A stretch of 64,000 nucleotides of DNA from Anaerolineales bacterium (GTDB lineage Bacteria > Chloroflexota > Anaerolineae > Anaerolineales > UBA11579): positions 322,234 to 386,233 of the forward strand of contig JAHCIJ010000002.1 in assembly GCA_026129255.1 (NCBI GenBank), given 5' to 3'. This document shows, piece by piece, positions 36,612 to 62,172 of the stretch. How positions within the stretch are numbered: the stretch's first letter is position 1; the number at the start of each line of letters is the position of its first letter. The notes beneath the pieces were generated by a model. That model was given only the letters and a program-made list of their open reading frames with translations, ran no database searches and had not been told where the DNA came from. Position numbers and translations under genes: made by a program.

Positions 36612-38057
36612 TCAGCGGCGCGCCAGGCTGCGGAAGGGGTTGGGGTGCGCCGCCCGCGCCAGGGGCGCCGCCGCCAGGTGGCCGCTGCCCACATGCAGCA
36701 TCCAGGCCACTGCATCCAGCGTATCGTCGTGCTCGCCGTGCGGCCAGCGCAGCCACTCTTCGCGGAAGCTGCGCAGGAAGGGTGTCTCCACGTCCGCCAC
36801 GCGGGCGCGCCCGCTCTGGAACAGCGGCGCCATACCCGCTTCAAAGCGGCGGCCTTTGCTCTTGCCGCCCGGGTGCAGCGGCAGCAGCGGCAGGCTGGAG
36901 GTGCGCAGCATCAGGTGATAGAACTCCTCGCCTTTGCCCACCGCCTCCACGCCGATCATTTGCGTAGACGGGTACAACGCCGCCAGGGCGCGTAGCTGCT
37001 GCTCGGCTTCACCCTGGCTCACATGGGCGCGGAAGCCATCCACCAGCACGATGCCGCCGCCGGGCAGCACGCGGCCGATGGCCACTGCAAAATAGTCGCG
37101 CTGGCGGCCGTGCAGCTCATCGGCCGTGCTGGCATAGTCCACGCCCATCACCACCGGCCAGGCGATCTGGATCTTCTCGTGCGGGTAGGGTTGCAGCCAC
37201 TCGGGCCGCAGGTGCAGACCCTGCGCGGCTTTGAGGTCGAGCAGGTACATGCGCGCAAACTCAGCCTCGCCGCTCAGCTGGCGCAGCTTGCGGATGGCGG
37301 CGGCCGGATACTTGCTGGCCCACTGCGAGCGCCCGTTGCGTAGGATCGGTGTGTTGGCGCTGTGGAAGCGGCCGGTGGCGGCCAGATAGGCCAGCGCGTC
37401 GTTGTCACGCCACGGCGTGCCCACCACCAGCTGCCAGGTCTCCGGCGTGGCCGTGGGCAGGATGGTGCCGGTGAGGATCTTGATCACCATCTCCAGCTCG
37501 CGCGCCGAGCGCGTGTTGTTCTCATCGTGAATATCGTCCAGCAGCAGCAGGCCGGTGGGGTGTTTGCCGATCACGGCGCGTGACTTATAGCCCAGGCCGA
37601 GCAGGGTCGGGTCTTTGCCTTTCTCGCGGGCACAGGTGGCACGCCATTCGGCGTAGTTTGTGACCGCGGTGTTATTGACCTCGTAGCCATCCGCGCCCCA
37701 GCTCACTTTACGGTCCGGCACGATGTGCTTGAACGCGGCCTTCCAGCCCTGATTGTGCTCGATGAGTTCGGCCACCTGGGCGGCGGTGTCGCTAGCGGCG
37801 CGGTCACCCGCCTGGATGATGAGATGACTCTTGTGCGGCTGCTGCCCGATACGGAAGGCGGTGAAGGCGGTGCTCAGCGTAGTGGTCTTGCTGGAGCCGC
37901 GGAAGGCCGTCACCACCAGGCCTTTGTTGGCGGCGCGTGCCGCGTACAGCGGCTCGATCCAATCACGCAGGGCGTGTTTGGGCAGCGGCCGCTGGTAGAG
38001 CAGCTTGTAAAAGTGCGCAAAGCCTTCTGCGCTGTCTGGCAGGTTGTTGGTTTCCAT
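36612..38057 (-). CDS. terL: Phage terminase large subunit (Terminase_6-like ATPase plus RNaseH-like nuclease)
   Basis: Start ATG at 38057 after CAAAGGGGGAATC. Walker A is AFRGSSKTTTLS and Walker B is GLLLLDDIHDE. Nuclease motifs are VMGVDYAST... and GEHDDTLDAVAWML. The upstream part of the listed ORF has no coding character. Confidence 0.85.
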   Translation of the reverse strand: METNNLPDSAEGFAHFYKLLYQRPLPKHALRDWIEPLYAARAANKGLVVTAFRGSSKTTTLSTAFTAFRIGQQPHKSHLIIQAGDRAASDTAAQVAELIEHNQGWKAAFKHIVPDRKVSWGADGYEVNNTAVTNYAEWRATCAREKGKDPTLLGLGYKSRAVIGKHPTGLLLLDDIHDENNTRSARELEMVIKILTGTILPTATPETWQLVVGTPWRDNDALAYLAATGRFHSANTPILRNGRSQWASKYPAAAIRKLRQLSGEAEFARMYLLDLKAAQGLHLRPEWLQPYPHEKIQIAWPVVMGVDYASTADELHGRQRDYFAVAIGRVLPGGGIVLVDGFRAHVSQGEAEQQLRALAALYPSTQMIGVEAVGKGEEFYHLMLRTSSLPLLPLHPGGKSKGRRFEAGMAPLFQSGRARVADVETPFLRSFREEWLRWPHGEHDDTLDAVAWMLHVGSGHLAAAPLARAAHPNPFRSLARR

Positions 38058-38167
38058 GATTCCCCCTTTGGAATGTGAAACGCGGCTGTGTGGTAGCACA
38101 GACCCGCCACACATGGCCAAAATGGCCGGTATCATCAACTTGCTTGACGGCTCACAAAGGAGGATGG

Positions 38168-38746
38168 ATGAAGCTGCGTACATTCTTCGTAGGGCTGCTG
38201 GCTGTGCTGTTGGCCGCCTGCCAACCGGCGCCCCAGCCAACGACGCCGCCCACGGCGCGGCAAACTGTGTTGCCCACGCCGCGGCCAACCCGCACGCCTA
38301 CCGCGGCGCCCAGCGCGGCGCCCAGCGCCACGCGGGCGCTGGACGCGCTGCAAGCGGCCATTGCGCAGCAGGATGCAGCGGCCATCGTTGCCTTGGTCAA
38401 TATGGACTACCGCTTTGGCTACGCCTCTTATATTGAAGGCGGCCAATCCGTAACATTGGATGAATTCCGTGCTGATCTGGAAGCGCGCCTGCCCAGCGTG
38501 CCGGTTTGCCTGGGTTATTGGGAAGAGGACAATACCCTGCAGGTGTGGTTCGAGGGCTGGTCACCCGCTTGGGAGATCCACGAGCACTGCTACGCAGAGT
38601 GCCAGCCATTGGATGAGATCTGGTACAGCACTACCGCGGGCTTCTTGCTCAATAACGAGGAGGGTGCATGGGTGCTTAAGGCGTTGTTTCTAAATGAGCC
38701 GGGGGCTTATTACTACCGAGAGGTAGCTTTACAAGCCTGTGACTAG
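38168..38746 (+). CDS. Hypothetical lipoprotein
   Basis: AAAGGAGGA RBS. MKLRTFFVGLLAVLLAACQP has a lipobox, followed by a PT-rich linker. Confidence 0.6.
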   Translation: MKLRTFFVGLLAVLLAACQPAPQPTTPPTARQTVLPTPRPTRTPTAAPSAAPSATRALDALQAAIAQQDAAAIVALVNMDYRFGYASYIEGGQSVTLDEFRADLEARLPSVPVCLGYWEEDNTLQVWFEGWSPAWEIHEHCYAECQPLDEIWYSTTAGFLLNNEEGAWVLKALFLNEPGAYYYREVALQACD

Positions 38747-38823
38747 GTGACTGCCCTCACAACCGGAGCGCGCCTCTGCTATAATGAAGCGACTTTAGGC
38801 CCTGCCACTGCAGGGTCTTTTTA

Positions 38824-40692
38824 ATGGAAAGACTTATGCAAAAATCTCGTACTGATCTCCGTAATATTGCCATTATTGCCCATGTAGACCATGGGAAGAC
38901 CACCCTGGTGGATGGCCTGCTGCGCCAGGCGCGTGTGTTCCGTGACAATCAGCAGGTAGCTGAGCGCATCATGGACTCCAATGACCTGGAGCGTGAGCGC
39001 GGCATCACCATCTTGTCCAAGAACACCGCTGTGCAGATCACCGACCCGGCCAGCGGCCAGCTCGTCAAGATCAACATCGTAGACACCCCCGGCCATGCCG
39101 ACTTTGGCGGCGAGGTGGAGCGCGTGATGAACATGGTGGACGGTGTGCTGCTGCTGGTGGACGCTGCCGAAGGCCCGCGTCCGCAGACCCGCTTTGTGCT
39201 CAAGAAAGCGCTGGAGCTGGGCCTGCGCGCCATCGTGGTTATCAACAAAGTAGACCGCCGCGATGCGGATGTGGCCCGCACGCTCAACGATACTTTTGAC
39301 CTGTTCGTAGACCTCGGTGCCACAGACGAGCAAGCCGATTTCCCGGTGGTGTACGCCGTCGGCTCGCAGCAGCGTGCTGGCCTGACCCCCGAGCTCGGCC
39401 CAGACCTGCAGCCTCTGTTCGAGACGATCCTCAAAGAAGTGCCGCCGCCGCTGGTGGACGCGGACGCACCCCTGCAGATGCTGGTCACCACGCTGGACTA
39501 TGACAATTACCGCGGCCAAACCGCCATCGGCCGCATCTTTGCCGGCCGCATGCAGGTCAACCAGCCGGTGATGCGCATCAAGCTCGATGGGCAGCAACTG
39601 CCCGAGGTGCTGCGCTACCTGTACCTGCAAGATGGCTTGCAGCGCGTCGAAGTGCAAGAGGCCAACGCCGGCGACATTGTCGCCGTGGCGGGCCTGGAAG
39701 GCATCGGCATCGGCGAGACGCTGGCCGACCGCGAGCAGCCCGTGGCGCTGCCCGGCATCCATGTCGAGGAGCCCACCGTACGCATGGCCTTCGGCGTCAA
39801 CACGTCGCCCTTTGCCGGGCGCGAGGGCAAATGGGGCACCAGCCGCAAACTGCGCGAGCGCTTGTACAACGAGCTGCGCAGCAACCTCTCGCTGCGCGTG
39901 CAGGATACCGATAGCGCCGACACCTTCATCGTCTCCGGACGCGGCGAGTTGCATCTGGCGATCCTCATCGAAACCATGCGCCGTGAAGGCTACGAGTTTC
40001 ACGTGGCCCGCCCCGAAGTGATCCTCAAAAAAGACGACGAGGGCAATATGCTCGAGCCGTTTGAAGAAGTGCACATTGAAACCAGCCCGGAGACGGCCGG
40101 TGTGGTGGTGGAGATGATGGGCAAGCGCCGCGGCGAAATGCAGCAGATGATAGAAGGCCCCGGTGGAAGCACCCTGATGACCTTTGTCGTGCCTACGCGC
40201 GGCTTGCTGGGCTTCCGCCAGCAGTTCCTCACTGCCACGCGCGGCCGCGGCATCATGAACACCCTCTTCGCCGGCTACCGGCCAGTGGCCGGGGTGATCA
40301 CCTCGCGGGCGCGCGGCTCGCTGATCGCCTATGAGACCGGCATGGCGGTCACGTATGGTTTGCGCGCCGCCGAGGAGCGCGGCACGCTGTACATCGCCGC
40401 CGGCACCGAAGTCTACGCCGGCATGGTGGTGGGCGAGCAACCGCGCGAGGGTGACCTTGAGGTCAATGTGTGCAAGACCAAGAAGCTCACCGGTGTGCGC
40501 GCCGACTCGCGTGGCGAGATCGAGCAGCGCCTCTCGCCGCCGCGCATCATGAGCCTGGACGAAGCCATTGAGCAGCTCGGTGATGATGAGCTGCTGGAAG
40601 TTACGCCGCAGAGTCTGCGCATCCGCAAGAAGATCCTGGATATGCATGTGCGCGGCCGCGAAACCAAGCGCGCCAAGCAGGCACTTGAATAG
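38824..40692 (+). CDS. typA: Translational GTPase TypA/BipA
   Basis: [19 protein letters not shown]...[14 protein letters not shown]...NKVDR... and a full-length EF-G-like architecture. The start may be the second ATG at 38836. Confidence 0.95.
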
Positions 40693-40720
40693 TACGTAGC
40701 GCCGCCAGGCGCTACGTACT
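40691..40720 (+). terminator. Strong hairpin after typA (no clear T-tract)
   Basis: agtacgtagcgc-cgccag-gcgctacgtact. Confidence 0.5.
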
Positions 40721-40759
40721 TAGTCAACTAGTCGTTTTGGTCGCTGGCTTGTGGGCAGG

Positions 40760-41070
40760 GTTGTCATGAAGTAGTCCTCCGCTGGATACCCCACCGCTTG
40801 CGGTGGGGAGGAAAGCGGAGTTGTTTTCCCTACCTTAGGGGAGGGAAAACTGAAGAAAGGGTGGGGGAATTTTTAGGTCGTGTCGCCCTGAGCAGAGCGA
40901 AGGGCAATCATAGAGTTGGTAAAAAAAGTCACTACGCAGATGGTAAGTTGTCTGACTTGGAAGTATTTTTTAGAGAAGCAGGCGAGCCGGGCGCAAGGAC
41001 CAAAGCCCCCCGCTTGCGGCGGGGTTCGTTACTGCGAGCGAAGCGAAGCAATCTGCTTCACTCTAGTCAA
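40760..41070. repeat. Cluster of short GC-rich hairpin elements (REP-like) in a ~400-bp intergenic region
   Basis: ctccgctggataccccaccg-cttg-cggtggggaggaaagcggag; gttttccct...agggaaaac; gtcgccctgagcagagcgaagggc (reverse complement of the 26343 element); ccccccgcttgcggcgggg; tgcgagcgaagcgaagcaatct. Confidence 0.7.
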
Positions 41071-41121
41071 TGGTTGACGCAGTGTAGGTGTATAAGTAAG
41101 ATACCCAGGGTTAATGATCCG

Positions 41122-41889
41122 ATGCGAGTACTCAAAGCGGCTGCCTTCTTGGCTATTATTGTGTTTTGTGGCTGGGCCTTGTGGAGCAGCAGCCGTAGCC
41201 CTGCGCCTACGGTGATCTTAGCCATCCCCACGCCAGAGTGCTCGCCGCAAGCCTTGCCGCCCAGCTACTACACCCTGACCAACTCGATGCGCGCCTTTGA
41301 CGATGCCTTGCTGCTGGCGGTCAACTTGCCGCGTGAGCAAGTGGTGCAGCAGGTGGAGCGCTTGCAGGAGCTGCGCCGCACGGTGGAGGCCGAGACCGCC
41401 CCCGCCTGCATGCAGACCTTCAAATCCAGCTTGCTGGCGTACATGAACCGGGTATTGGAGCTGCTGGTAGCCTTTGTGGGCGGCGCCGCCCCAGACTTGG
41501 TGATGCGCGGGCTGACCCAGGCGACCGAGCTACGCCTGCCGATCCAAGAGGCCATCGCCGCCCTCACTGGGGTGACGGTGACCCCGTACCCCACGATGCA
41601 GCCCCTCCCTGAGGCCACCCAGAGCTCGGATGTATCGATCCCTGTCACCGGCGCCAGCACGCTGCAAGCCATCGTAAGCCACACCGAGGGGGTCAACCTG
41701 CGCGAAGGGCCAGGGGTGCTGTTCAGCTTTGATGTGGTGCTGGCGTCTGGCACCCCGCTGCAGGTGCTAGGCAGCGATAGCAGCCGCCAATGGCTGCTGG
41801 TGAGCGACCCTCAGGGGCAGCAGGGCTGGGTTTTCCTGCCGTTGGTGACCCTGGAGGGCGATGTGAACAGCCTGAGTGTGGTTGAGTAG
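41122..41889 (+). CDS. Membrane-anchored protein with a C-terminal SH3b domain
   Basis: MRVLKAAAFLAIIVFCGWALW is the anchor. The C-terminal LQAIVSHTEGVNLREGPGVLFSFDVVLASGTPLQVLGSDSSRQWLLVSDPQGQQGWVF is SH3b. The 5' part of the listed ORF lies in the repeat cluster. Confidence 0.65.
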   Translation: MRVLKAAAFLAIIVFCGWALWSSSRSPAPTVILAIPTPECSPQALPPSYYTLTNSMRAFDDALLLAVNLPREQVVQQVERLQELRRTVEAETAPACMQTFKSSLLAYMNRVLELLVAFVGGAAPDLVMRGLTQATELRLPIQEAIAALTGVTVTPYPTMQPLPEATQSSDVSIPVTGASTLQAIVSHTEGVNLREGPGVLFSFDVVLASGTPLQVLGSDSSRQWLLVSDPQGQQGWVFLPLVTLEGDVNSLSVVE

Positions 41890-42030
41890 CGAATATTTAC
41901 TCATTGACAGAGTACTGAACTCGCTGAACGGGGTTGAGTAAGGAATTTACTCATTGACAGAGTACTAAACTCGCTGAACGGGGTTGAGTAGCGAATATTT
42001 ACTCATTGACAGAGTACTAAACTCCTAGTA
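41882..42030. repeat. About 52-bp tandem repeat x about 2.8, beginning at the stop codon of the SH3 gene
   Basis: ttgagtagcgaatatttactcattgacagagtactgaactcgctgaacgggg / ttgagtaaggaatttactcattgacagagtactaaactcgctgaacgggg / ttgagtagcgaatatttactcattgacagagtactaaactcc... Confidence 0.9.
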
Positions 42031-42034: not shown

Positions 42035-42119
42035 ACTAACAATTTTGTAAGCGTGATCCAACCGGCAGGGAACCTACACAGCCGCCACCACGGGGGGTCA
42101 CTAAAAACTAGGAGTATGT

Positions 42120-46337: not shown

Positions 46338-46493
46338 GTGAAGAAGAAGAAGGCTGTGAAGATTAAAGAAACGAAGCAAGCCTATAGCTCTGCTCCCCAA
46401 AAGCAGACGGCTATGCGCGCCGAAGTGCGCAAGGCCTTTGAGAAAGTTTTTGAGCGCAATAAAAAGGCTTGGCAGGAATTAGCAAAGCGCTAG
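46338..46493 (+). CDS. Putative antitoxin (51 aa, basic/helical) upstream of doc
   Basis: Own translation: VKKKKAVKIKETKQAYSSAPQKQTAMRAEVRKAFEKVFERNKKAWQELAKR. It overlaps the doc ORF start and lies in a low-GC patch. Confidence 0.4.
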   Translation: MKKKKAVKIKETKQAYSSAPQKQTAMRAEVRKAFEKVFERNKKAWQELAKR

Positions 46494-46895
46494 TATTTCT
46501 TACCTTTCGGGATGTCCTCTCGATCAATGAGACGGTCATCCAAAGGAGCGGGGGTTTCTTTGCCCCGCCTGATAATCTACTCAACACAAATAGCCTGCTA
46601 TGGGTTCTGGAAGCAATTCAAGGGCAAACTGTTTTTGGCTCTGATTCATATGCCGCTCTAAGCGATAAGGCCTCGTTAATCGCTTGGACAATTATCAATG
46701 ACCATGTCTTTAACGATGGCAACAAGCGCACTGGCATGCTATGCATGGCGATATTCCTGGAAATCAAATGGAGTCAGCCTACTAACCTCCGATGACCAAA
46801 TTGTCACAATGGCATTGAAAATTGCAACTCACCGAGAACAAAACTTCACCAGGTCAATGCTTGTCACTTGGATCAGTGAGCATGGTGCCGGATAG
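46469..46895 (+). pseudogene. doc: Fic/Doc-family toxin (death-on-curing), interrupted by a 1-nt frameshift
   Basis: HVFNDGNKRTGMLCMAIFLEI is the Fic/Doc HxFxDGNKR motif. The reading continues in another frame as NGVSLLTSDDQIVTMALKIATHREQNF...(46698..46895 ORF). The shift maps to the A-run at about 46766. Confidence 0.7.
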
Positions 46896-47022
46896 CGGCC
46901 CCGCGTACATCTGAAATTTAAAGACAGACCAGCACATAGGTAAAGAGTTTGCTTGACAGCCTCATCTGATGAGACTGAGTTTGCGCTTGATGACTTACAC
47001 TTAGGCAATAAAAGGGGGAACT

Positions 47023-48777
47023 ATGCAAGAGCTAGCGTATTTTCAATCTATAGCACAAAACATGATTGCGGCAGACCGGGAGCGCGATGAGATGTTGCGC
47101 GCCATGGACGCCATGTGGCACAACCGCTGGCAACTGCCGCCGCCGCTGCAGGCGGTGGGCTGGGTGCACAAGGTGGTCAGCACGGACCCGCACGACGCCG
47201 TGAGGGCTGGGACGCGCGTGCTGAGCGCCGTGGCGCCGCGCATCAGCGTGCAACCGCTGAACGAAGACGCCGCCGGGCGCGGCCAGGCCGAGCGCATGGA
47301 GCGAGCGCTGGCCTGGCACTTCCGCAATGCCACCCGCCGCCGTCGCGCCAGCGTGCTGCGCGATGTGGTGCTGAGCGCGCTGCTGTACGACGAGGTGGTG
47401 GCGCAGGTGGTGTACCTGCCAGCCCAGCAGCAGGCTGTGCGCACCCTGGGCGCCTCCGCCTTAGCCGGCGGCTTAGCCCACAGCTTGCGCTTTGGGCCCT
47501 TCGCTATCATCGTGCGCAACCCGCAGCATGTGCATGTGCGCTACTCTGACTGGCAGCCGGAGGCGGTGCTGCTGAAGCAGGTGATGCGCGTGGACGAGGC
47601 GGCCGCCTTTTGGGGGGATGTACTGGTCGAGAAACTGCAAAAACCAGCCAGGGGATTGCTTCGTCGCCCCGCTGCCGTGCAGCGTACCGCTGCGCAGCAG
47701 CGTACTCCTCGCAATGACGAAATGGCGACCCATCTGACTATTTTCGACTACATGGATACTGAGCAGCGCGCCGTGTGGGCTGTGCTGCAGCCGGATGCGG
47801 CCGCAGTGGCTGAGCCGACCGGCAGCGAGCAAGCGGCCGCCATCGAGATCCTGCGTGAGGCGCACGGCCTGGGCTTTTTGCCGTGGGCGGCCAAGGTGGG
47901 CGGCACCACGCTGCATGGCGGCGGCTTGCAGCGCATCCCGCTGCTGGCCTCGGTGTACCAGTCTCGGCAATGGGATACCCAAAATATTGTCGAGACGCTG
48001 CTGGCTTCGGAGGTGATCGCCTACGCGGCAGCGCCGCGCCTCAAGGTGGAGGGGCCGAGCGCTGAGGTGGATGTGGATTACGGCGAGCCGGGCCGCGTGG
48101 TGCATGTGCCACCCGGCCACCAGCTCAACCCGCTGGCCGCGCCGGGGCTGGACGAGAGCCTGGCGCGCATCGCTGAGCGCGTGGCCGAGCGCATGGGCAA
48201 GAGCACGGTGCCACGCGTGCTGCAGACCGCAGACTTCCCGGGCGGCACGGCCTTCGCCACGCTCAACTTGGCCACGCAAAGCGGCATCAAGAGTCTGACG
48301 CCTTACAAGGAGCTGGCCGAAGACGCGCTGGCCGAGGTGTTTCACCTGATGCTGCACTGGGTGCAGCACAGCGGCGAGCCATTGAGCGCCTATGTGAGCA
48401 AACGCGGCCGCCGCGAGACGATCGCGCTCGATCCGGCGGAGGGCGATCTGACGCAGGTGCTGATCGATGTGGAGTTGACCGCCGATGTGCCCACCGATCG
48501 CATGGCGCGTATCAATGCCGCCAGCATGGCGGTGCGTGACCTGGGCTACAGCCGTGAGCGGGCGCTGGAGCAGATCGGCGAGACGGATGCGAAAGAGGTG
48601 ATGGCGCAGGCCGAGCAGGAGCAGTTGGCCGCGGCGCGGCTGGAAGCACGCAAGCGCCGCCTGCTGGCGGATGCGGAGCCGCCGGAACCTAACCGCCGCG
48701 GCTTTGACCCGGCGGCGGGCGGCCTGCCGCCGGTGATGGCGGACCCGGAGGGCGTGGCAGGGGCGAATACGGAGTAG
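47023..48777 (+). CDS. Putative phage portal protein
   Basis: The 584-aa ORF follows AAAAGGGGGAACT. Size, an acidic/helical C-terminus (EQEQLAAARLEARKRRLL) and co-occurrence with terL and the capsid gene suggest a portal. No motif-level proof is possible by eye. Confidence 0.5.
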   Translation: MQELAYFQSIAQNMIAADRERDEMLRAMDAMWHNRWQLPPPLQAVGWVHKVVSTDPHDAVRAGTRVLSAVAPRISVQPLNEDAAGRGQAERMERALAWHFRNATRRRRASVLRDVVLSALLYDEVVAQVVYLPAQQQAVRTLGASALAGGLAHSLRFGPFAIIVRNPQHVHVRYSDWQPEAVLLKQVMRVDEAAAFWGDVLVEKLQKPARGLLRRPAAVQRTAAQQRTPRNDEMATHLTIFDYMDTEQRAVWAVLQPDAAAVAEPTGSEQAAAIEILREAHGLGFLPWAAKVGGTTLHGGGLQRIPLLASVYQSRQWDTQNIVETLLASEVIAYAAAPRLKVEGPSAEVDVDYGEPGRVVHVPPGHQLNPLAAPGLDESLARIAERVAERMGKSTVPRVLQTADFPGGTAFATLNLATQSGIKSLTPYKELAEDALAEVFHLMLHWVQHSGEPLSAYVSKRGRRETIALDPAEGDLTQVLIDVELTADVPTDRMARINAASMAVRDLGYSRERALEQIGETDAKEVMAQAEQEQLAAARLEARKRRLLADAEPPEPNRRGFDPAAGGLPPVMADPEGVAGANTE

Positions 48778-48820: not shown

Positions 48821-48824
48821 TTGC

Positions 48825-49431
48825 CATTGCGAGGCGCAAGCTCCGCAGGAGCTGCGCACGAAGCAATCTGCTAGTTTAGGTTGAGGACCACTTGTGAGGG
48901 TAGGTGGACACCTTGCTTTGGGATTGCTTCGTCCGCGCTGCTGCGCAGCGCTGTCCTCACAATGACAGTAGATGTAAGGGGCGTACGCGCTGGTGACCTG
49001 ACTCGACTTTGCTTGCCCTAAAAGGATTCCTCGGTTAGCGCAACTCACAACTGGCTATTCGTAAAAACACCACCTCGGAATGACGTAGAACACAAGACGC
49101 AGCATGCTGCGCACGCTGTAAGTCTGTCATTGCGAGGCGCAAGCTCCGCAGGAGCTGCGCACGAAGCAATCTGCTAGTTTGGGTTGAGGACCACTTGTGA
49201 GGGTAAGTGGACATCTGGCTTGGGGATTGCTTCGTCCGCGCTGCTGCGCAGCGCAGTCCTCGCAATGACAGTAGATGTAGGGCGTACGCGCTGGCGACCC
49301 TGACTCGACTTTGCTTGCCCTAAAGGATTCCTCGGTTAACGCAACTGACAAACTGGCTATTCGTAAAAATGCCACCTCGGAATGACGTAGAACACAAGGC
49401 GCAGCATGCTGCGCACGAAGCAATCTGCTAG
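48825..49431. repeat. About 303-bp tandem repeat x 2, each unit a nested palindromic element
   Basis: cattgcgaggcgcaagctccgcaggagctgcgcacgaagcaatctgctagttt...gggattgcttcgtccgcgctgctgcgcagcgc.gtcctc.caatgacagtagatgta... The unit starts at 48825 and again at 49128. Confidence 0.9.
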
Positions 49432-50360: not shown

Positions 50361-50939
50361 ATGACGTATTCCAAAATTGCCTGGATCATGCTGATTGGTT
50401 CTAGCCTGTTTTTACTGGCTGCTTTTAATCCCTCCGCCATGGCTTTTGCGGCGCGCACCCCGGAGACCAAGCTCGACATACTGAACAAACTGCCCAGATT
50501 ATGGGTGGTTTCTCAATTTGGATTTGGCTTTGGGGCCATTCTTCCGGCCATCGGTTATCTGCTTTTGGCGCGCGGCCCCTATGGAGCCAATACGCCGTTT
50601 CCAGGCATCCTTACCGCGGTATCGATCGGCATGCTGATCGGCGCGGGCTTGTGGGGTATCAACTTGGTCCAACGCGCAAGCGATTTTGAAGGCTTTGCCC
50701 GCGGCGCTCATGCCAATTGGCCTTTTGTGGTCTACACGGTTTTGACCTTAGTGGGTTTGGCGGTCTGGGGCTATGCGTATCTTCAGGGAAACATGCCCGC
50801 TTGGATCGGTTGGGGCACTTTAGGGCCGGCGGTGGCTCTGTTTGTGTTGTTCATCGTTTTTAAAGATATGCCGCCCTTTGTTTACTATCTCGTGAACCTG
50901 GAGCTTATCTGGGTGCTGTTCAAGCACGCGCCGAAATAA
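50361..50939 (+). CDS. Hypothetical multi-TM membrane protein
   Basis: AAGAAGGGAG RBS. MTYSKIAWIMLIGSSLFLLAAFNPS... GC is lower than in the flanks. Confidence 0.55.
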   Translation: MTYSKIAWIMLIGSSLFLLAAFNPSAMAFAARTPETKLDILNKLPRLWVVSQFGFGFGAILPAIGYLLLARGPYGANTPFPGILTAVSIGMLIGAGLWGINLVQRASDFEGFARGAHANWPFVVYTVLTLVGLAVWGYAYLQGNMPAWIGWGTLGPAVALFVLFIVFKDMPPFVYYLVNLELIWVLFKHAPK

Positions 50940-50943
50940 CTGG

Positions 50944-51447
50944 CTACTCAGCTTCGCTGAGCGACGCTTCTGCAGTCAACGGTTGGCTGGCGTCAATAGT
51001 CCAAGCAGAGAGGGTGCTGCGTGCTCCGCACGCGGTGCTGCGCACGCGGCAGAAGCTACTCAGCTTCGCTGAGCGACGCTTCTGCGGTGAGCGATTGCCC
51101 CAGCATCGATAATCCAGGCAGAGAGGTGCTGCGTGCTGCGCACGCGGCAGAAGCTACTCAGCTTTCGCTGAGCGACGCTTCTGCAGTCAACGGTTGGCTG
51201 GCGCCAATAATCCATGCGCTGGGGTGCTGCGTGCTACGCACGCGGCAGAAGCTACTCAGCTTCGCTGAGCGACGCTTCTGCGGTGAGCGATTGCCCAGCA
51301 TCGATAATCCAGGCGGAGAGGGTGCTGCGTGCTGCGCACGCGGCAGAAGCTACTCAGCTTCGCTGAGCGACGCTTCTGCGGTAAGTGATTGCCCAGCGTC
51401 AATAGTCCAGGCAGAGGGGTGTTGGGTGAAGCCGATGTGGGGGTAAT
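50944..51447. repeat. Five tandem ~98-112-bp units; the last is the real 3' end of the GNAT gene and the other four are downstream ghost copies
   Basis: ctactcagcttcgctgagcgacgcttctgc... starts at 50944, 51056, 51154, 51252 and 51350. Two sequence variants alternate. 51350 is the GNAT stop codon. Confidence 0.9.
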
Positions 51448-51790
51448 AGTCCACCGCGGCGGGGGCGGCCAGCAGGATCAGCTTGGCCTCAGGTTGCAGA
51501 GCGGCTTGCGTGTGGCGGATGAGTTGCTTGCCGATGCCGCCTTTTTGGTGGCTGGCGCGTACGGCCAGGTCAGACAGATAGCAGCAATAGACCCAATCGG
51601 TCACTGAGCGGGCAATCCCCACCAGCAGCTTGCCATCCCAGGCGGTTACGGTGAGGTTGGCGTTGGCCAGCATTTTGGCCATGCGCTCGGCGTCATCCAC
51701 CGGGCGGCGGACGCCGAGGGTGCTGGCGCGGTACAGCTCGATAGCGGCGTCCAGCTCCAGGGGGACATTTAGGCGGTATTCAACGGGCAT
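51350..51790 (-). CDS. GNAT-family N-acetyltransferase
   Basis: AGGAG RBS. MPVEYRLNV...YLSDLAVRASHQKGGIGKQLIRH carries the acetyl-CoA motif A (Q/RxxGxG/A). Confidence 0.8.
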   Translation of the reverse strand: MPVEYRLNVPLELDAAIELYRASTLGVRRPVDDAERMAKMLANANLTVTAWDGKLLVGIARSVTDWVYCCYLSDLAVRASHQKGGIGKQLIRHTQAALQPEAKLILLAAPAAVDYYPHIGFTQHPSAWTIDAGQSLTAEASLSEAE

Positions 51791-55988: not shown

Positions 55989-56840
55989 ATGGAAAACAAG
56001 CGCCGCCTGTTTACTTTGATCACGCCGCCCTCGGTGTTTTTGCTGTTCTTCTTTATGGTGCCGTTGGTCATCATGGCGCTGTATGCATTTAAATCAAGTA
56101 GCTTCGGCCCGCTGTTTCCGCTTTCGCTCAATGCGTTCAATAACTTTTTTTCCAACCCCGCTTACTTTGTCCTTCTTATAAACTCCAGCCAGCTGGCGCT
56201 GCTCACTGCGGTGCTCTCCATTGTGCTGGCCTTCCCGGTTTCCTATTACTTGGTGTTTTACACCGGCTCGCGCCGCGTGATGCTGCTGACGTTGTTGATC
56301 TTGCCGGCCTGGATCAGCTACCTGCTGCGTGTGCTGGCCTGGAAAGTGATCCTGGGTTCTGAGGGTTTGCTGAACCAGCTGCTCCTCGCTACAGGCTTGA
56401 TCCAGGATGGTGCGCCGATCCTGCTGTACAGCCAGGCGGCGGTGCTGATCACGCTGGTGTATGTGTGGATCCCGTTTGCGGCGCTGCCGATCTTTGCCGC
56501 TATGGAGCGCATTGACCCGCGCCTGCACGAGGCAGCCGCCGACCTGGGCGCCTCGCCCAGCGTTACCTTTTGGCGGGTGACCGCGCCGCTGACGATGCCG
56601 GGTGTGGCTTCGGCGTTCTTCTTTGTGTTCATCCCCACGCTGGGCGAGTGGGTCACGCCCACGCTGGTGGGCGGGGTGAGCGGCATCATGTATGGCAACC
56701 TGATCCAGGACCAGTTTGGGCGCGCGCTCAACTGGCCGCTCGGCGCCCTGATGAGCATGGTCTTGCTGGTGCTGGTGGGCGTGTTCAGTTACGTCTTCAA
56801 CCGCTTTATCCCGATCACCGAAGTGCCGGTGTCAAGCTAA
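55989..56840 (+). CDS. ABC transporter permease (PotB-like)
   Basis: Six TM helices and the EAA-type loop ...MERIDPRLHEAAADLGASPSVTFWRVTAPL... Confidence 0.8.
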   Translation: MENKRRLFTLITPPSVFLLFFFMVPLVIMALYAFKSSSFGPLFPLSLNAFNNFFSNPAYFVLLINSSQLALLTAVLSIVLAFPVSYYLVFYTGSRRVMLLTLLILPAWISYLLRVLAWKVILGSEGLLNQLLLATGLIQDGAPILLYSQAAVLITLVYVWIPFAALPIFAAMERIDPRLHEAAADLGASPSVTFWRVTAPLTMPGVASAFFFVFIPTLGEWVTPTLVGGVSGIMYGNLIQDQFGRALNWPLGALMSMVLLVLVGVFSYVFNRFIPITEVPVSS

Positions 56841-56865
56841 ATATGAAGGCGCAAGCTATGCAAAG

Positions 56866-57672
56866 GTGCCGCCAATGAGGCAGACGGGCAAGTGGGTGGG
56901 GCTGGGCTATTACCTGCTGCTGCTGCTATTTTTGCAGCTGCCGATTTTGTTATTGATCGTATTCTCGTTCAATGACTCGGTGCTGCTGGTGTTCCCGCTC
57001 AAGGGGTTCACCTTGCAGTGGTACCGCGAGCTGTTGCAGGCCACCGAGCTGATCAATGCCGCCAAGAACAGCCTGATCATTGGCCTGGTCTCCTCGGTGG
57101 TGGCCACGGTGTTGGGCAGCGCGGCGGCGATCGCCATTGCGCGCTACAACTTCCCTGGGCGTGCGTTCTTCCTCAATATTGCGACGCTGCCGCTGGTGAT
57201 CCCGTATGTAGTGTTGGCGGTGGCCTTGCTGCTGATGTTCCAGGCGTTGAATGTGGAACTCAGCCTGTGGACGATCATGATCGGCCACACGATCATCAAC
57301 ATGCCGTATGTCATGCTCATCGTAGCGGCGCGCCTTTCTGGGTTCGCCAATAATCTCGAAGAAGCGGCGATGGACCTGGGCGCCACGTACTGGGGCACGC
57401 TGATGCGCGTGACCCTGCCGATCTCCATGCCGGCGCTGGTGGCGGCGTTCTTGTCTTCGTTCACCATGTCGTTCGACGAGTTCTCGCTGGCGTTCTTCCT
57501 GGCGGGCACGCAGAATACGTTGCCGGTGTACTTGTACTCGCAGCTGCGCTTCCCCAGCCGTTTGCCGCTGGCAGTGACCACGGCAGCAGTGGTTATTATG
57601 GTGTCTGTGGTGATCTTGCTCTTCAGTGAGTGGTTACGGCGCATTGGGACGGGTAGGGTGCCGAAGAGTTAG
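56866..57672 (+). CDS. ABC transporter permease (PotC-like)
   Basis: ...NNLEEAAMDLGATYWGTLMRVTLP... is the EAA loop. The start may be the ATG at 56875. Confidence 0.8.
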   Translation: MPPMRQTGKWVGLGYYLLLLLFLQLPILLLIVFSFNDSVLLVFPLKGFTLQWYRELLQATELINAAKNSLIIGLVSSVVATVLGSAAAIAIARYNFPGRAFFLNIATLPLVIPYVVLAVALLLMFQALNVELSLWTIMIGHTIINMPYVMLIVAARLSGFANNLEEAAMDLGATYWGTLMRVTLPISMPALVAAFLSSFTMSFDEFSLAFFLAGTQNTLPVYLYSQLRFPSRLPLAVTTAAVVIMVSVVILLFSEWLRRIGTGRVPKS

Positions 57673-57785
57673 GAATAGAGATAGAGAGAATAGAGATTGG
57701 AGATTTGTAACTGGTAACTAGCAATTGGTACTCGTGCGAGCTAGTGCAATTCCTGATTACTGGTTACGAATTACTGATGACGAGG
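57673..57785. repeat. Heptamer-phased intergenic tract inside the ABC operon
   Basis: aatagag atagaga gaataga gattgga ... tgtaact ggtaact agcaatt ggtactc ... gattact ggttacg aattact. Confidence 0.7.
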
Positions 57786-57789
57786 ATCT

Positions 57790-59058
57790 ATGAAACCATT
57801 GGCAGTTGAGCTCAAGAACGTAAGCAAGGTCTTCTCCGGCGCGGGGCGCGGGGAGGGGTTGATGCATGCCGTCAAAGGCGTGGACCTGGAGATCAAGCAG
57901 GGTGAATTCTTCACCATGCTTGGCCCCAGTGGTTGCGGCAAGACCACTACGCTGCGCATGATCGCCGGTTTTGAGTTCCCCACCAGTGGTGACATCTACT
58001 TGAATGGCGAGCTATCCAACGATGTGCCGCCCTACAAGCGCCCGGTGAACACCGTGTTCCAAAGCTATGCGCTGTTCCCGCATCTCACTGTGGCGCAGAA
58101 TGTGGGTTTTGGCCTGGCGGTCAAGCGCGTACCCAAGGCGGAGCGCGACGTACGCGTGCGTGAGGCGCTAGAGCTGGTGAAGCTGGGCCAGTTGGGTGAG
58201 CGCAAGCCCAACCAACTCTCCGGCGGCCAGCAGCAACGCGTGGCGCTGGCGCGTGCGCTGGTGAACCGCCCGGCGGTGCTGCTGCTGGATGAGCCGCTGG
58301 GTGCGCTGGACCTCAAGCTGCGCGAGACCATGCAGCACGAGCTGAAGGACCTGCAAAGGCGCGTGGGCATTACCTTTATTTATGTGACCCACGATCAGGA
58401 AGAAGCGCTCACGATGAGCGACCGGATTGCCGTGATGAACGAAGGCCGCGTGCAGCAGGTCGGGTCGCCGGAGCAGATCTACAACTTCCCCGCCAATCAC
58501 TTTGTGGCTGACTTCATTGGTGATACCAACTTCCTTGAAGGCAAAGTGGTGTCCTTGCATCAAGACCGCACGGTGCTCAAAGTGGGCCGTGAAGACGTGA
58601 CCGCCGCGCCGGCCAACTTCCCGTTGATGCCGGGGCAAAAGGTCACCATGGTGATCCGGCCCGAGAAACTGGGCGTGGCGCGCGAGCTGGCGCCGGCCCT
58701 GGCGCCGGGCGCCGAAGCGCCGCCAGCGGCGCCGAGCAACCCGGCCAAGGCGCCGCAGCCGCGTGTGAACGCGGTGATGAATGCGCGCGTGCTGGATTCG
58801 GTGTTCCTGGGCACTGATACGCGTGTAGAAGTGACGCTGAAAGGCGGCACGGAGCTGACCGTGCTGGTGCGCAATCTGGACGATGACGAGGAGTTCAAGA
58901 AGGGCGAGAAAGTGGTGTTGACGTATGATGCGTTCGACTCGCGCTTGTTGCCTGCGGCGCAACTAGGCACCACGGAGGAAACCTACATTGGCAATGGGGA
59001 GCATCCATTGCCGCCACCCAGTGAGCCAGCCAAGGATGAATCAAAAAAGACGCCATAA
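57790..59058 (+). CDS. ABC transporter ATP-binding protein (PotA-like) with an extended C-terminus
   Basis: [17 protein letters not shown] (Walker A), [15 protein letters not shown] (signature), [11 protein letters not shown] (Walker B). The C-terminal part holds TOBE-like and low-complexity regions. Confidence 0.9.
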
Positions 59059-59071
59059 GGCGTCTTTTTTT
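59043..59071. terminator. Bidirectional intrinsic terminator
   Basis: aaaaaagacgcc-ataa-ggcgtcttttttt. Confidence 0.85.
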
Positions 59072-59083
59072 GTCGCGTTTTGC

Positions 59084-59863
59084 TTAGCTCAATACGTTTT
59101 GTACGTGGAAGCGCTTTTGTATAACAGCAGGTGGGAAGTAGGCGATATAGATCAGTGCCAGGGCAGCGATGCCTATCAAGCGAATGGTGAGCGGCCACCA
59201 GGTGGTGGCGTTGGGGTTGATGCCGAACGCTACGATGAAAATGAGCGGGATGAAGTAACCCAGGCCAAAGATGGTGAACAAACCCAGCGGCACAAGCAGG
59301 GCGCGGAACTTTGCACTGGGTTCTGTGATGCGGAAGTACAGGCTGAACATGCCGATGCTGGCCACGATGGGCGGCAGGCTCATCAACGCGATCAGCGCAA
59401 TACCGAACAGCAGGCCAAACACGCCCTGCGGCTCGTTTTGGTATTGGATCAAAGCTTCCCAGGTGCCCATGCTGACGCCGATGGGGCGCAGCAGATAAAT
59501 GGACGCCAGCAGCCCAACGCCGAAGGCGATGTAGAAGCCCGCGATCCAGCCGGAGAAACGGTGAGAGCCCTTGAAGATATACATGAGGTAGGTGAGCAAG
59601 CCCCACAGGGCGGGAGCCGCCGACAGCGTGGCGGCCAGGCTGAAGAGCACGAAGAGGGGCAGGTAATCGATGCCCAGGCCGAGGGCCAGCACAGACAGGC
59701 CGTTGATGCCGGTGTTGGCGGCCATGCCGTACCACCAGACGCGGAAGGCGCGCCAGGCGCGTGCATCTTGTGGGTCTGCGAAGCGCTTGCGGCTTAGTGA
59801 GTGCCCAATAAAAAAGTACAGTGCGCTGTTGGCAAAGAAGATTGCGAGTGAGGGAAAGTTCAT
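59084..59863 (-). CDS. Hypothetical polytopic membrane protein
   Basis: The 259-aa protein has about 8 hydrophobic helices (MNFPSLAIFFANSALYFFIGHSL...). The listed overlapping ORFs are alternative-frame artefacts. Confidence 0.6.
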   Translation of the reverse strand: MNFPSLAIFFANSALYFFIGHSLSRKRFADPQDARAWRAFRVWWYGMAANTGINGLSVLALGLGIDYLPLFVLFSLAATLSAAPALWGLLTYLMYIFKGSHRFSGWIAGFYIAFGVGLLASIYLLRPIGVSMGTWEALIQYQNEPQGVFGLLFGIALIALMSLPPIVASIGMFSLYFRITEPSAKFRALLVPLGLFTIFGLGYFIPLIFIVAFGINPNATTWWPLTIRLIGIAALALIYIAYFPPAVIQKRFHVQNVLS

Positions 59864-59902
59864 TGTGGTGTGTGGCCTAAAGCCGCCATCCTGTGAATAG
59901 CA

Positions 59903-60055
59903 TCATATGAGCCGGGCGGCGCGTTGAGCCAGCGTGTCGCCCAATTGCTTGGCGGCTGGAAGCGGTGGAGCCTGGATGGGCTTCACTTTGTTTTGGCTGA
60001 GCTTGCGCGGCGGGCGCGCTTTGCGCTTGGAGCCTTTGGCTGGGGGCTTCGCCAT
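59903..60055 (-). CDS. Possible small basic protein (50 aa), below the ORF-track cutoff
   Basis: Own translation: MAKPPAKGSKRKARPPRKLSQNKVKPIQAPPLPAAKQLGDTLAQRAARLI. No convincing RBS. Confidence 0.25.
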   Translation of the reverse strand: MAKPPAKGSKRKARPPRKLSQNKVKPIQAPPLPAAKQLGDTLAQRAARLI

Positions 60056-60208
60056 CGTTGTCCTATCAGCGATGATAGTGGAAATTCATATTGGCGCAAA
60101 TGACCTTGCATAACTGTTAGGTCGTCCAGCAGCTTGATAGCGGCGCCGGATCCGGGGAGGGAACCAGCAGCCTGTGCTATACCGTGGTTCAAAGGGGGAA
60201 TGATAGAC

Positions 60209-60760
60209 ATGGATGCAGACGTTTCAGTGGGGGAGCAAGAGCCGACAGCGGCAACGGCGAGCAGCTCGGGGAGCACCTCGGGGAGCAAGAAACAGCAACG
60301 CATCGCTGACCTTGTGAAGGCGCAACTGCGCGACCAGCTGAAGGAGGAGCTGGCGGAGGTGTTGGAAGCGCGCCTGGAGGCGCTGGCGGCCGAGCGCGGT
60401 GACGCCAGCGAGCCGGACGCGCCGCCTGAGCTGCAAGTGCTGGACGCCTTGCAGCAGGCGGGCTTGGAGCACGACCCAGGCGTGCGGCGCCTGCTGCAGC
60501 AGGCGCAAGCCGGGGAGCCGCAGGCCGAGTTGCGTGCGCTGGCAGACCTGGCCAGCTTGGCGCTGGCGCGCATTACGCGCATCGGCGGGGCGGGCACGGC
60601 ACGTGCCAGCCGGGCCATCCCGCCCGGTGGAGCAGGCGCACCCGCGCCCGACCTGCGCGCTGAGTATGCACGGCGGCTGGCGGCAGTGCGCGCCGGGGAT
60701 GTGAGCGGCCTGCTGGAGGTCAAGCGCGAGTTCAGGAAGCGGGGGCTGGAAGTGTATTAA
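60209..60760 (+). CDS. Putative phage scaffolding-like protein
   Basis: CAAAGGGGGA lies 9 nt before the ATG at 60209. The product is acidic and Ala/Leu/Glu-rich helical (QLRDQLKEELAEVLEARLEALAAERG...). It sits immediately upstream of the capsid gene. The call rests on position and composition only. Confidence 0.4.
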   Translation: MDADVSVGEQEPTAATASSSGSTSGSKKQQRIADLVKAQLRDQLKEELAEVLEARLEALAAERGDASEPDAPPELQVLDALQQAGLEHDPGVRRLLQQAQAGEPQAELRALADLASLALARITRIGGAGTARASRAIPPGGAGAPAPDLRAEYARRLAAVRAGDVSGLLEVKREFRKRGLEVY

Positions 60761-60774
60761 ATGCAAGGATGAGG

Positions 60775-61025
60775 GATGAAGAAGAAGGGAGAAGGGAGAA
60801 GAGAGTGGAGATTGCTGATCGCTGATTGTTGATTTGAGAGCGGCAAGGAAGGAGAAAGGAGAAGGGAGAAGGGAGTGAGATTGCTGATGGCTGACTGTTG
60901 ATTTGAAAGCGGCAAGGAGAAGGGAGAAGGGAGTGGGGATTGCTGATGGCTGACTGTTGATTGTTGATTTGAAAGCTGGCTGCTGATTGCTGGCAGCTAA
61001 TGGCTAACGGCTAATAGCTAACAGC
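60775..61025. repeat. About 65-70-bp tandem repeat x3, heptamer-phased throughout, between the scaffold-like and capsid genes
   Basis: (aagggag aagggag tg.gagat tgctgat ggctgac tgttgat ttgaaag cggcaag) x3, then gctaatg gctaacg gctaata gctaaca gctaaaa. Confidence 0.85.
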
Positions 61026-61041
61026 TAAAAGGGGGATTTGA

Positions 61042-62172
61042 ATGGCAATTTACGATGGTATGAAGACAACTTATGCGGACACTGCGGCGCAGGCGCGGGC
61101 GATCAGCAATGTGGTGCAGATGATCGATCCGCGCGATACGCCGCTGCTGGCGCGCCTGGGGCTGGACAGCGCCCGCGAGAAGTTCAAGATCCGTATGAAC
61201 GGGCACAAGGTGGAGCTGCTGGAAGACGAGCTCGATCCGCTGGTGACGGCCGCCAACAACGGCGAGACGATCACCACCTCGGCCACCAGCTTTGTGGTGG
61301 CGGATGCGTCTGTGTTTCAGGATGGGTACGTCATCCTGATCGATGCGGAGTACATGGTGGTCAAGAGCGTGGACCTGGGCACCAACACCGTGACGGTGTA
61401 CAGCCGCGCCTATGGCGGCACGAACGCCACGCATGCCGCCACGGCGGCGATCCAGATCACGGCGATGGCGCGCCTGGAGGGCGAAGATGCCGACTACGGC
61501 CCGCTGGTGGCGCTGAACGCGCCGTTCAACTACACCAGCATCTTCCAGAAGGCGGTGCAGGTGAGTGGCACGCAGCAAGCCATCAGCCAATACGGCATCG
61601 AGGACGAGTTCCAGTATCAAGCCAATAAGGCCGTGCCGCACCTGCTGCGCCTGGTGGAAGGCGCAGCCTTCCACGGCGTGCGTGCGGCGGGCTCGGCGAG
61701 CACGCCGCGCTCGATGGGCGGGCTGGGCACCTTCATCACCAACAATACGGTGGATGCCGGCGGGGCCATCGCCAAGGCGGATGTGGACGGGCTGATGGAA
61801 GAGATCGTGATGGATGGCGGCAACCCGGACCTGCTGGTGATGAACCCGCGCGTCGCCAATGATCTGCGCGGCCTGCTGGACAACAGCAGCTTCGTACGCG
61901 TGAACCAGGATGAAAGCAAGCTGGGCTTGCGGCCGATCGAGCGCGTGGTGACGCAGTACGGCGAGCTGGAGCTGGTGATGGATCGCTGGTGCCCGGTGCA
62001 CACGGCCTATGTGCTGGAGAGCGGCAAGGTGGGCTTCTATACCTTGCGCGGCTTCGAGGCCAAAGAGCTGGCGCGCTCCGGTGACAGCCTGAAGGGTGAG
62101 GTGGTGGGTGAGCTCAGCCTGTTGGTGGCCAACAACAAGGCGCACGGCAAGATCACGGGGATCACGACGTAG
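61042..62172 (+). CDS. Phage major capsid protein, SU10/DUF5309-type (HK97 fold)
   Basis: CTAAAAGGGGGATTTGA precedes the ATG. ...DTPLLARLG...VELLEDELD...ARLEGEDADYG...NYTSIFQKAVQVSGTQQAISQYGIEDEFQYQ...RSMGGLGTFI...GGNPDLLVMNP...VVTQYGELELVMDRW... matches my recollection of this capsid family. Confidence 0.75.
   Translation: MAIYDGMKTTYADTAAQARAISNVVQMIDPRDTPLLARLGLDSAREKFKIRMNGHKVELLEDELDPLVTAANNGETITTSATSFVVADASVFQDGYVILIDAEYMVVKSVDLGTNTVTVYSRAYGGTNATHAATAAIQITAMARLEGEDADYGPLVALNAPFNYTSIFQKAVQVSGTQQAISQYGIEDEFQYQANKAVPHLLRLVEGAAFHGVRAAGSASTPRSMGGLGTFITNNTVDAGGAIAKADVDGLMEEIVMDGGNPDLLVMNPRVANDLRGLLDNSSFVRVNQDESKLGLRPIERVVTQYGELELVMDRWCPVHTAYVLESGKVGFYTLRGFEAKELARSGDSLKGEVVGELSLLVANNKAHGKITGITT

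Follow-up and report, generated by a model that had tools for sequence, protein, structure and literature searches.

The window analysed here is a stretch of 64,000 nt from an Anaerolineales bacterium (contig JAHCIJ010000002.1, positions 322,234 to 386,233 of the forward strand). Four genes of tailed-phage type lie in it, encoding a large terminase (TerL; 36612..38057, minus strand), a portal protein (47023..48777, plus strand), a scaffolding-like protein (60209..60760, plus strand) and a major capsid protein of the SU10/DUF5309 type (61042..62172, plus strand). The original prediction, made from the letters alone, described them as intact head-assembly genes scattered among housekeeping genes, and all four are indeed uninterrupted open reading frames (ORFs). 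A codon-position GC screen of the window yields about 58 likely genes. Blocks of 9-11 kb of cellular genes stand between the phage-type loci, and this part of the prediction holds too. They include typA/BipA and genes for a beta-helix protein, a PAS protein, a rhomboid protease, a dioxygenase, a GNAT protein, a copper nitrite reductase (nirK), a membrane protein and a four-gene ABC transporter. A candidate small terminase (TerS) lies a further 12 kb from TerL, which makes at least four loci over 38 kb. The phage-type genes also have the host-like composition that had been predicted, with a GC content at third codon positions of 0.82-0.87 against 0.80 in typA and 0.82 in nirK. We argue below that these genes belong to one phage-derived element, and that it probably resembles a gene transfer agent (GTA).

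The identity of TerL (481 amino acids, aa), a packaging ATPase and nuclease, is clear. It matches phrog_38, "terminase large subunit", in a PHROG profile search (E=1e-51). A Terminase_6 match had also been expected, but the Pfam Terminase_6C profile scores 17.2 bits, under its cut-off of 22.6. The catalytic motifs that the original prediction had read in the sequence are all kept. Walker A (AFRGxxKTT, residues 51-59) and Walker B (D174/D175) are invariant in 26 homologues, down to 50% identity, and so are the nuclease residues D307, D444, D445 and D448. The protein therefore combines the ATPase motifs and the RNaseH-like nuclease acidic residues of a large terminase. Some TerL homologues are longer, at about 600 aa (P0263, P0301, P0313 and others). 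An intein was considered as the cause; P0263, when examined, instead has a low-complexity insertion of about 100 aa in the linker between ATPase and nuclease.

The portal (584 aa) had been put forward as putative, and it has no sequence match in Pfam, PHROGs or the PDB. The evidence for it is its predicted fold. An AlphaFold2 model built from 28 aligned homologues is of moderate confidence, with a predicted local distance difference test score (pLDDT) of 68 and a predicted template modelling score of 0.62. In a Foldseek search of this model against the PDB, all 50 matches at E<=0.001 are portals of phages or archaeal viruses, at probability 1.00. The best is that of cyanopodophage Pan3 (E=6e-9), and the SU10 portal (7z4a_J) matches at E=1.3e-7, with TM-scores across the matches of only 0.23-0.43 when normalised to the query. 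Because every one of the 50 fold matches is a tailed-virus portal, the call is, as far as the model goes, correct. Within the portal gene, positions 47669-47718 are 77-84% identical to 48936-48966 and 49239-49269, which belong to 303-nt repeats downstream. This stretch encodes a variable, low-confidence loop of the model (residues ~195-235) and may be a repeat fragment inserted in frame.

The capsid protein (376 aa) is the best defined by sequence. It covers positions 2-292 of the 292 in the Pfam SU10_MCP profile (PF17236) at E=4e-62, with 210.9 bits against a gathering threshold of 24.1, and it matches phrog_1328 at E=2e-52, so the SU10/DUF5309 call stands. The gene before it encodes an acidic, helical protein of 183 aa with a conserved C-terminal motif (...GDV..L...KREFR.KGL.V[YF]) and no family match in Pfam, PHROGs or PDB sequence searches. 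A homologue lies directly 5' of the capsid gene in most related loci that cover the stretch. Position, composition and the C-terminal motif together point to a scaffold. Just 3' of the capsid gene is a terminator-like hairpin (62371..62398, plus strand), with a 10-bp stem, an invariant loop (GAGGGGGA) and then a T-rich tail. Across six sequences 96.7% of its cells are paired, and compensatory changes occur in four of the ten pairs. Insertions in the window and in one related locus (L011; the related loci are numbered with an L) begin right after this hairpin.

Are there further genes of the element in the window? The original prediction saw no small terminase, and this was probably wrong. The ORF at 24141..24563 (minus strand, 140 aa) encodes a helical protein with a helix-turn-helix (HTH)-like core that is 43-46% identical to the product of a gene of about 131 aa directly 5' of TerL in L005, L006 and L027. 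A similar gene of this size is found near the capsid gene in L028. The candidate has no match in PDB or PHROG sequence searches, and its single-sequence AlphaFold2 model (pLDDT 53) is too poor for a fold search. A neighbouring 71-aa ORF (23975-24190) with an ACAGGGGGA signal was also considered and dropped, as it has no homologue in related loci.

The original prediction also found no tail or lysis genes. This is true inside the window, but the closest relatives tell a different story. In the five with capsids 93-94% identical to that of the window, a tail-like and holin-like module begins 0.2-2 kb 3' of the capsid gene. Its genes encode proteins of 274, 851, 141, 455 and 109 aa in that order, followed at the end of the cluster by small, holin-like membrane proteins with one to three hydrophobic helices. 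The cluster of a more distant genome additionally encodes a Laminin_G_3 protein and a GH25 lysozyme with matches to phage endolysin PHROGs. Homology between the window and its closest relatives ends 21 nt past the capsid stop codon. The place where the tail module follows in those relatives is occupied in the window by a large ORF (62520..64000, plus strand, running off the window) with SpvB (Pfam E=3e-7) and DUF11 (E=3e-4) domains. It resembles a Tc/Rhs-type toxin, has no tblastn match to any related locus and is not part of the element.

A prophage would be expected to form a contiguous block with an integrase and attachment sites, and here the genes lie 9-12 kb apart among host genes. The prediction that integrase and att-like features are missing agrees with what was found. 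No integrase occurs among the ORFs scanned, which comprised most called genes of 32-64 kb and, from the first 36 kb, ten ORFs, with the remainder of that part judged by eye only. No att-type or tRNA site was found in the regions examined, and scans of the window for tRNA genes and Rfam families found nothing. Modules for replication, lysogeny and regulation are likewise missing in and beside the element loci examined.

The arrangement can be compared with that in related genomes. JAHBVE010000001.1 (loci L037 and L009) and DAOMSJ010000002.1 (L038 and L007) carry the same dispersed series as the window at near-equal spacing. The series runs from TerL through typA and the HTH, SH3, beta-helix, PAS and rhomboid genes to the portal, and then through the dioxygenase, GNAT, nirK, membrane protein and ABC transporter genes to the capsid. 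Conservation of the dispersed order in relatives, which the original prediction had named as a check, is thus observed. The three species that have it in common are separated by synonymous divergences (dS) of 0.4-0.9, and the split is therefore not recent. Nor does any relative show a complete contiguous prophage from which the window could have been recently rearranged, since the only contiguous locus (L025, from a distant relative) shows no integrase or replication genes within its 21 kb and the split is shared by three species. One might still ask whether phage contigs were placed in a host scaffold by faulty assembly or binning, as the sequence comes from a metagenome-type assembly. However, the same order recurs in independent assemblies from different studies (GCA_019637675.1, GCA_035446285.1, GCA_964623375.1 and CP075367.1), and the codon usage is host-like. 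The chance of such an artefact is practically negligible.

Other relatives arrange the same genes differently. In L025, TerL, portal, scaffold, capsid, an adaptor-like gene, an 860-aa gene and those that follow form a single block of about 15 kb. Its neighbours are a restriction-modification methylase gene and Fic, DUF302 and methyltransferase genes, and no integrase or replication genes were seen among the ORFs scanned of the 21-kb locus. L013 and L019 have the portal 1.3-1.6 kb 5' of the capsid gene, and in L002 the two are separated by 7.4 kb of peptidase and beta-propeller genes. The order in L005 and L006, from two distant genomes, is the 131-aa gene, TerL, two GGDEF genes on the opposite strand and the portal. 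L006 belongs to a complete 4.43-Mb chromosome (OY776212.2), in which this TerS-TerL-portal locus is about 167 kb from the capsid-tail locus. Among the roughly 21 loci with enough upstream sequence, the portal is within 10 kb of the capsid in five and TerL in two. The scaffold-capsid and adaptor-860-aa pairs are never split where both members were detected. The breaks fall between transcription units.

If the genes are so scattered, are they still maintained? For each of capsid, portal and TerL there are hundreds of homologues in metagenome-assembled genomes labelled Anaerolineales, Anaerolineaceae or Chloroflexota, on chromosomal contigs of up to 4.4 Mb. Among the matches listed (at least 120 per gene) nearly all are full length, with identities of 68-93% for the capsid, 42-88% for the portal and 44-91% for TerL. 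Of the 120 capsid matches listed, 115 are 375-379 aa long and the others are shorter partial entries. Ratios of nonsynonymous to synonymous substitution (dN/dS), estimated by the Nei-Gojobori method between the window and close relatives, were predicted to be below 1 and fall far below it. They are 0.06-0.09 for the capsid (dS 0.42-0.55), 0.10 for TerL (dS 0.57, against L038), 0.16 for the portal (dS 0.70) and 0.20-0.21 for the scaffold (dS 0.77-0.86). The host genes typA (0.06-0.08, dS 0.64-0.73), nirK (0.06-0.14, dS 0.65-0.80) and the ABC ATPase gene (0.05-0.07, dS 0.68-0.81) give similar values. The phage-derived genes are as constrained as their host neighbours and are not decaying. A decaying prophage would be recognised by pseudogenes and relaxed selection, and here the ORFs are intact and dN/dS is 0.06-0.2.

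The same comparisons bear on inheritance. The dS values of the phage-derived genes (0.42-0.86) are like those of the flanking typA, nirK and ABC genes (0.44-0.9). On contigs that carry both genes of a pair, pairwise distances of portal and TerL co-vary (Mantel r=0.86, 18 contigs, p=0.0002), as do those of capsid and portal (Mantel r=0.75, 10 contigs, p=0.0002). Synteny in three species, dS equal to that of flanking host genes and these correlations together indicate vertical inheritance, which is a feature of GTAs.

A further link between the scattered genes is found at their starts. The window contains exactly four copies of the 9-mer AAAGGGGGA, against 0.27 expected and with none of 100 shuffles reaching four, and each copy precedes the ATG of one of the four phage-type genes by 3-9 nt. 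On the minus strand it stands at 38061..38069, 3 nt before the TerL ATG, and it recurs before the TerL orthologue in L038. The plus-strand copies are at 47011..47019, 3 nt before the portal ATG (also before the orthologues in L013, L037 and L038), at 60191..60199, 9 nt before the scaffold ATG (also in L001, L007, L009, L010 and L011), and at 61028..61036, 5 nt before the capsid ATG (also in L001, L009 and L010). It precedes no other called gene of the window. Enrichment over the window as a whole is confined to the 9-mer and is not seen for the shorter motifs AAGGGGG and AGGGGGA. Related loci of the clade have AAGGGGGA-N3-4-ATG before the scaffold, capsid, 274-aa, portal, TerL and small tail-cluster genes. 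Element-gene starts account for most AAGGGGG occurrences in these loci, and none was seen before a host gene start. AAAGGGGGA would pair with the standard anti-Shine-Dalgarno sequence through one G-U wobble, this being the general consensus, as the host 16S rRNA gene lies outside the window. The signal confirms the start codons originally proposed and marks the scattered genes as one set. It is a candidate for a strong ribosome-binding site, and possibly a regulator target too. It is also a simple handle for finding the remaining genes of the element. Many host genes, by comparison, lack a Shine-Dalgarno sequence and carry a TATAAT-like box 6-8 nt 5' of the start codon (examples are the starts at 22777, 24671, 26974 on the minus strand, 27004, and 36559 and 46314, both on the minus strand), and a few have GGAGG-type sites. 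This suggests that leaderless transcripts are widespread in this organism.

How might the genes have been scattered? The original prediction noted that each locus borders large repeats and proposed that these had mediated the dispersal. The repeat blocks (48822-49431, 60775-61025 and 62200-62403) are present, but each is a local tandem array without similarity to the others. Similar arrays occur beside ordinary genes, away from the phage genes, at 18902, 41880 and 51035. Relatives with the same gene order lack the blocks, except for the terminator hairpin and a stretch just before the capsid start. Because they are mutually unrelated and absent from same-order relatives, the repeats cannot have recombined the loci apart, and this proposal is rejected. 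Five copies of a 98-nt tandem repeat (50914-51457) adjoin and overlap the 3' end of the GNAT gene; at the corresponding position L001, L007 and L037 each match the unit only once.

These observations can be set against the definition of GTAs. According to Kogay et al. (2022; PMC9662315), proteins derived from tailed phages form phage-like particles that encapsidate mostly random host DNA and deliver it to other cells. The genes are endogenised, often at multiple loci, and are mostly inherited vertically with co-diversification with their hosts. Head size is limited, such that a GTA's own genes cannot all fit in one particle (PMC9662315). In the present case, profile and fold searches establish the phage ancestry of TerL, portal and capsid, and the genes are endogenised at multiple loci, at least four over 38 kb here and two about 167 kb apart in OY776212.2. 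Packaging of all element genes together, dispersed as they are over 38 kb in one genome and 167 kb in another, seems unlikely. The set as known from sequence (phage-derived, vertical, limited to morphogenesis and lysis genes, scattered) fits the genomic definition of a GTA-type viriform (PMC9662315). We therefore consider it probable, with fair rather than high confidence, that Anaerolineales carry an old, vertically inherited, GTA-like element, derived from a short-tailed phage and maintained under purifying selection. As for the original prediction, its central idea of domesticated head genes in place of a decaying prophage agrees with the gene identities, the shared order and dN/dS, and its idea of repeat-driven dispersal does not survive.

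Several points weigh against this interpretation. The element is known from genes alone. The TerS candidate is assigned by conserved position only. Sequence searches of Pfam, PHROGs and the PDB give no match for the adaptor-like (~280 aa) and 860-aa proteins, and the label "tail" comes from position and from 860-aa homologues in phage contigs. Co-diversification with hosts is seen inside the window's clade only. Conservation of the capsid is by itself weak evidence, since this protein evolves slowly throughout the group, its free phages included (54-64% identity); synteny, dS, gene content and the other genes carry the case instead. TerL of L025 (3847-5374) is split into two ORFs (149 and 334 aa) by a frameshift or an assembly error. 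Finally, the tail module is absent within 10 kb of the capsid in four of the related loci that reach that far (L012, L016, L019 and L028) and from the 1.8 kb left after the capsid in the window, where the break in homology and the toxin-like ORF indicate that it has been displaced, or perhaps lost, in this genome.

The missing adaptor and 860-aa genes and the frameshifted TerL are what would be expected if the genes were relics of an ancient prophage, either co-opted singly for unrelated host roles or decaying very slowly, with no particle made. However, all morphogenesis genes persist as a group throughout the order, with few exceptions at full length and with dN/dS of 0.06-0.2. Invariant catalytic motifs, co-varying distances and a common translation signal also speak against relics, and separate co-option would not keep scaffold, portal and terminase as a set. 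We regard the relic explanation as distinctly unlikely.

Free relatives of the element do exist, and they raise another question. Phage contigs in IMG/VR (L041-L046; 15-42 kb, GC 48-53%) encode capsids that are 54-64% identical, portals that are 29-37% identical and 860-aa homologues that are 23-33% identical to those of the element. Like SU10-like podophages, they share with it the SU10_MCP capsid, the portal fold and the order portal...scaffold-capsid, and the 860-aa homologue likewise lies 3' of the capsid gene. They differ in their lower GC and in a giant ORF of 1867-2942 aa 5' of the scaffold gene, which lies between portal and scaffold where a portal was detected and has no Pfam or PHROG match. 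No giant ORF is found 5' of the scaffold at loci labelled Anaerolineales or Chloroflexota. Among cultured phages capsid identity is at most 33%. Capsid genes 62-70% identical also turn up in bins of other phyla, namely L031 (Planctomycetota), L034 (Dehalococcoidia) and L030 (Gemmatimonadota). L031 has a phage-like spacing, with the portal 8.8 kb 5' of the capsid, and all three may be phages or prophages of a related family or mis-binned contigs.

What if related temperate phages infected these hosts repeatedly and independently, the loci being separate remnants? The free contigs in IMG/VR and the phage-like look of L031 and L034 lend this some plausibility. Yet each locus set has one copy of each gene, the neighbourhood is identical in three species with dS equal to that of host genes, the regions examined yielded neither an integrase nor an att site, and the giant phage ORF is absent from all Anaerolineales and Chloroflexota loci. 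Repeated infection is thus a very improbable account of the loci.

GTA-like systems are very few and almost all are in Alphaproteobacteria (PMC12946183; PMC9662315). The closest described analogue, likened to the Anaerolineales element by description only, is FpGTA of Faecalibacterium prausnitzii. This podovirus-like, GTA-like element comprises TerS, TerL, portal, scaffold, capsid, tail and lysis genes only, with no replication genes, in two operons about 125 kb apart that are near-ubiquitous in the host genus (PMC12946183). Its particles and their packaged DNA of 8.4-8.9 kb have been demonstrated experimentally (PMC12946183). The two elements are alike in gene set and split loci. They differ in that FpGTA belongs to Bacillota, has two loci and is known as particles, whereas the Anaerolineales element has at least four or five loci and is known as genes.

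RcGTA-type elements (Rhodogtaviriformidae) have a head-tail cluster of about 15 kb and extra loci, are inherited vertically under purifying selection and have no integrase or replication genes (PMC9662315). In all of this they resemble the Anaerolineales element, which is also phage-derived. However, RcGTA is siphovirus-like, and the element described here has a podovirus-like layout and an SU10_MCP/DUF5309 capsid. The only significant Pfam family of this capsid is SU10_MCP, and no Pfam family is matched by its portal, scaffold or tail-cluster genes. For this reason the element is not filed under the RcGTA lineage. The RcGTA capsid is in a different Pfam family. Set apart in this way by Pfam families, the element does not look like a member of that lineage and would be of independent origin. 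We know of no CtrA-type regulation in Chloroflexota.

Encapsulins offer another parallel, as they are domesticated shell proteins with a capsid fold that are inherited by cells. They lack portal, terminase and scaffold, whereas the DNA-packaging parts are kept here with catalytic motifs intact. PBSX-like defective prophages are a further comparison, being chromosomally fixed genes for phage-like particles, and PBSX packages host DNA. Perhaps, then, the same domesticated Anaerolineales element makes a killer or defective-phage particle, one that packages host DNA without delivering it and serves in competition or lysis. The gene content (head, packaging, short tail, lysis and no replication genes) would fit such a particle equally well, and PBSX, although it injects no DNA, has been discussed among GTA-like elements (PMC12946183). 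Against this, PBSX-type elements are contiguous, self-regulated blocks with their own repressor and regulators and long contractile tails, and the present genes are dispersed, with no regulator genes recognisable and no sheath or tube gene found by Pfam or PHROGs. A killer particle is an unlikely explanation.

The GTA-like interpretation suggests a mechanism as well as a history. The gene content is restricted to morphogenesis, with the candidate TerS, TerL, portal, scaffold and SU10-type capsid in the window. Relatives add the adaptor-like 280-aa gene, the 860-aa tail-like gene, small tail-cluster genes, holin-like genes and sometimes the GH25 lysozyme. The ancestral state may have been a single block of about 15 kb, as in L025, whose modules were later scattered by insertions and inversions between transcription units, leaving in this genome at least four loci across 38 kb and a tail module that has been displaced. 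Expression of the modules, which bear the common ribosome-binding signal AAAGGGGGA, would be controlled by the host and limited to a subpopulation of cells. Scaffold and capsid would build proheads on the portal, TerS and TerL would fill these with DNA by headful packaging, a short tail would be added, and holin and lysozyme would free the particles. What the sequences show directly is the identity of the genes, their dispersal, conservation and co-divergence, and the lack of integrase and replication genes in the regions examined; particle assembly, the packaging of DNA, its delivery to other cells and regulation by the host are what we infer from the genes.

A bolder version of this proposal is conceivable, although we lean against it. 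This is that the element is an order-wide GTA of Anaerolineales, exapted independently from an SU10-like short-tailed phage, whose scattered modules are tied together by AAAGGGGGA as a post-transcriptional signal that is echoed in the GAGGGGGA loop of the hairpin after the capsid gene. If so, it would be the first GTA in Chloroflexota and would imply a specific RNA-level regulator of particle production. The literature searched holds no description of a GTA in Chloroflexota or Anaerolineae, nor of a domesticated DUF5309 protein.

Anaerolineales are abundant in activated sludge, digesters and sediments and are hard to culture, and to our knowledge there are no genetic tools for them. Through a conserved DNA-packaging particle under host control these communities would have a way to exchange genes, and such a particle might serve as a genetic tool. 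Of interest too is the family itself, as a natural series that runs from a single block of 15 kb to four or five scattered loci and shows how a host takes a virus apart: the breaks lie between transcription units, and the scaffold-capsid and adaptor-tail pairs were not found split.

Some features of the surroundings deserve mention. GGDEF (diguanylate cyclase) genes recur near the packaging genes, at 29937-33547 in the window, 8244-9904 in L005 and 8316-9956 in L006. In the window and in L038 a pair stands 3 kb from TerL, and L005 and L006 have two between TerL and portal. The likeness is confined to the GGDEF domains (31-40% identity) and orthology is unproven, so that a regulatory link through cyclic di-GMP is speculation. 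Divergent from TerL, across a 107-nt spacer, is a lipoprotein gene (38165-38746, 193 aa) with an AAAGGAGGA ribosome-binding site, whose counterpart in L038 encodes 188 aa.

Just 5' of the portal is a low-GC insertion (46338-46895, about 52%) that is absent from the relative L037. Within it are a small ORF of antitoxin type (46338-46493) and the gene for a Fic/Doc toxin (46469-46795; Pfam Fic E=3.5e-11), whose C-terminus carries on in another frame (46698-46895) through a frameshift or sequencing error. The toxin is 47% identical to the product of the Doc gene that ends the contiguous element of L025 (18653-19078). Elsewhere in the window, and unrelated to the phage genes, four tandem paralogous lipoprotein genes (6574-10208, 272-302 aa) share a conserved central segment.

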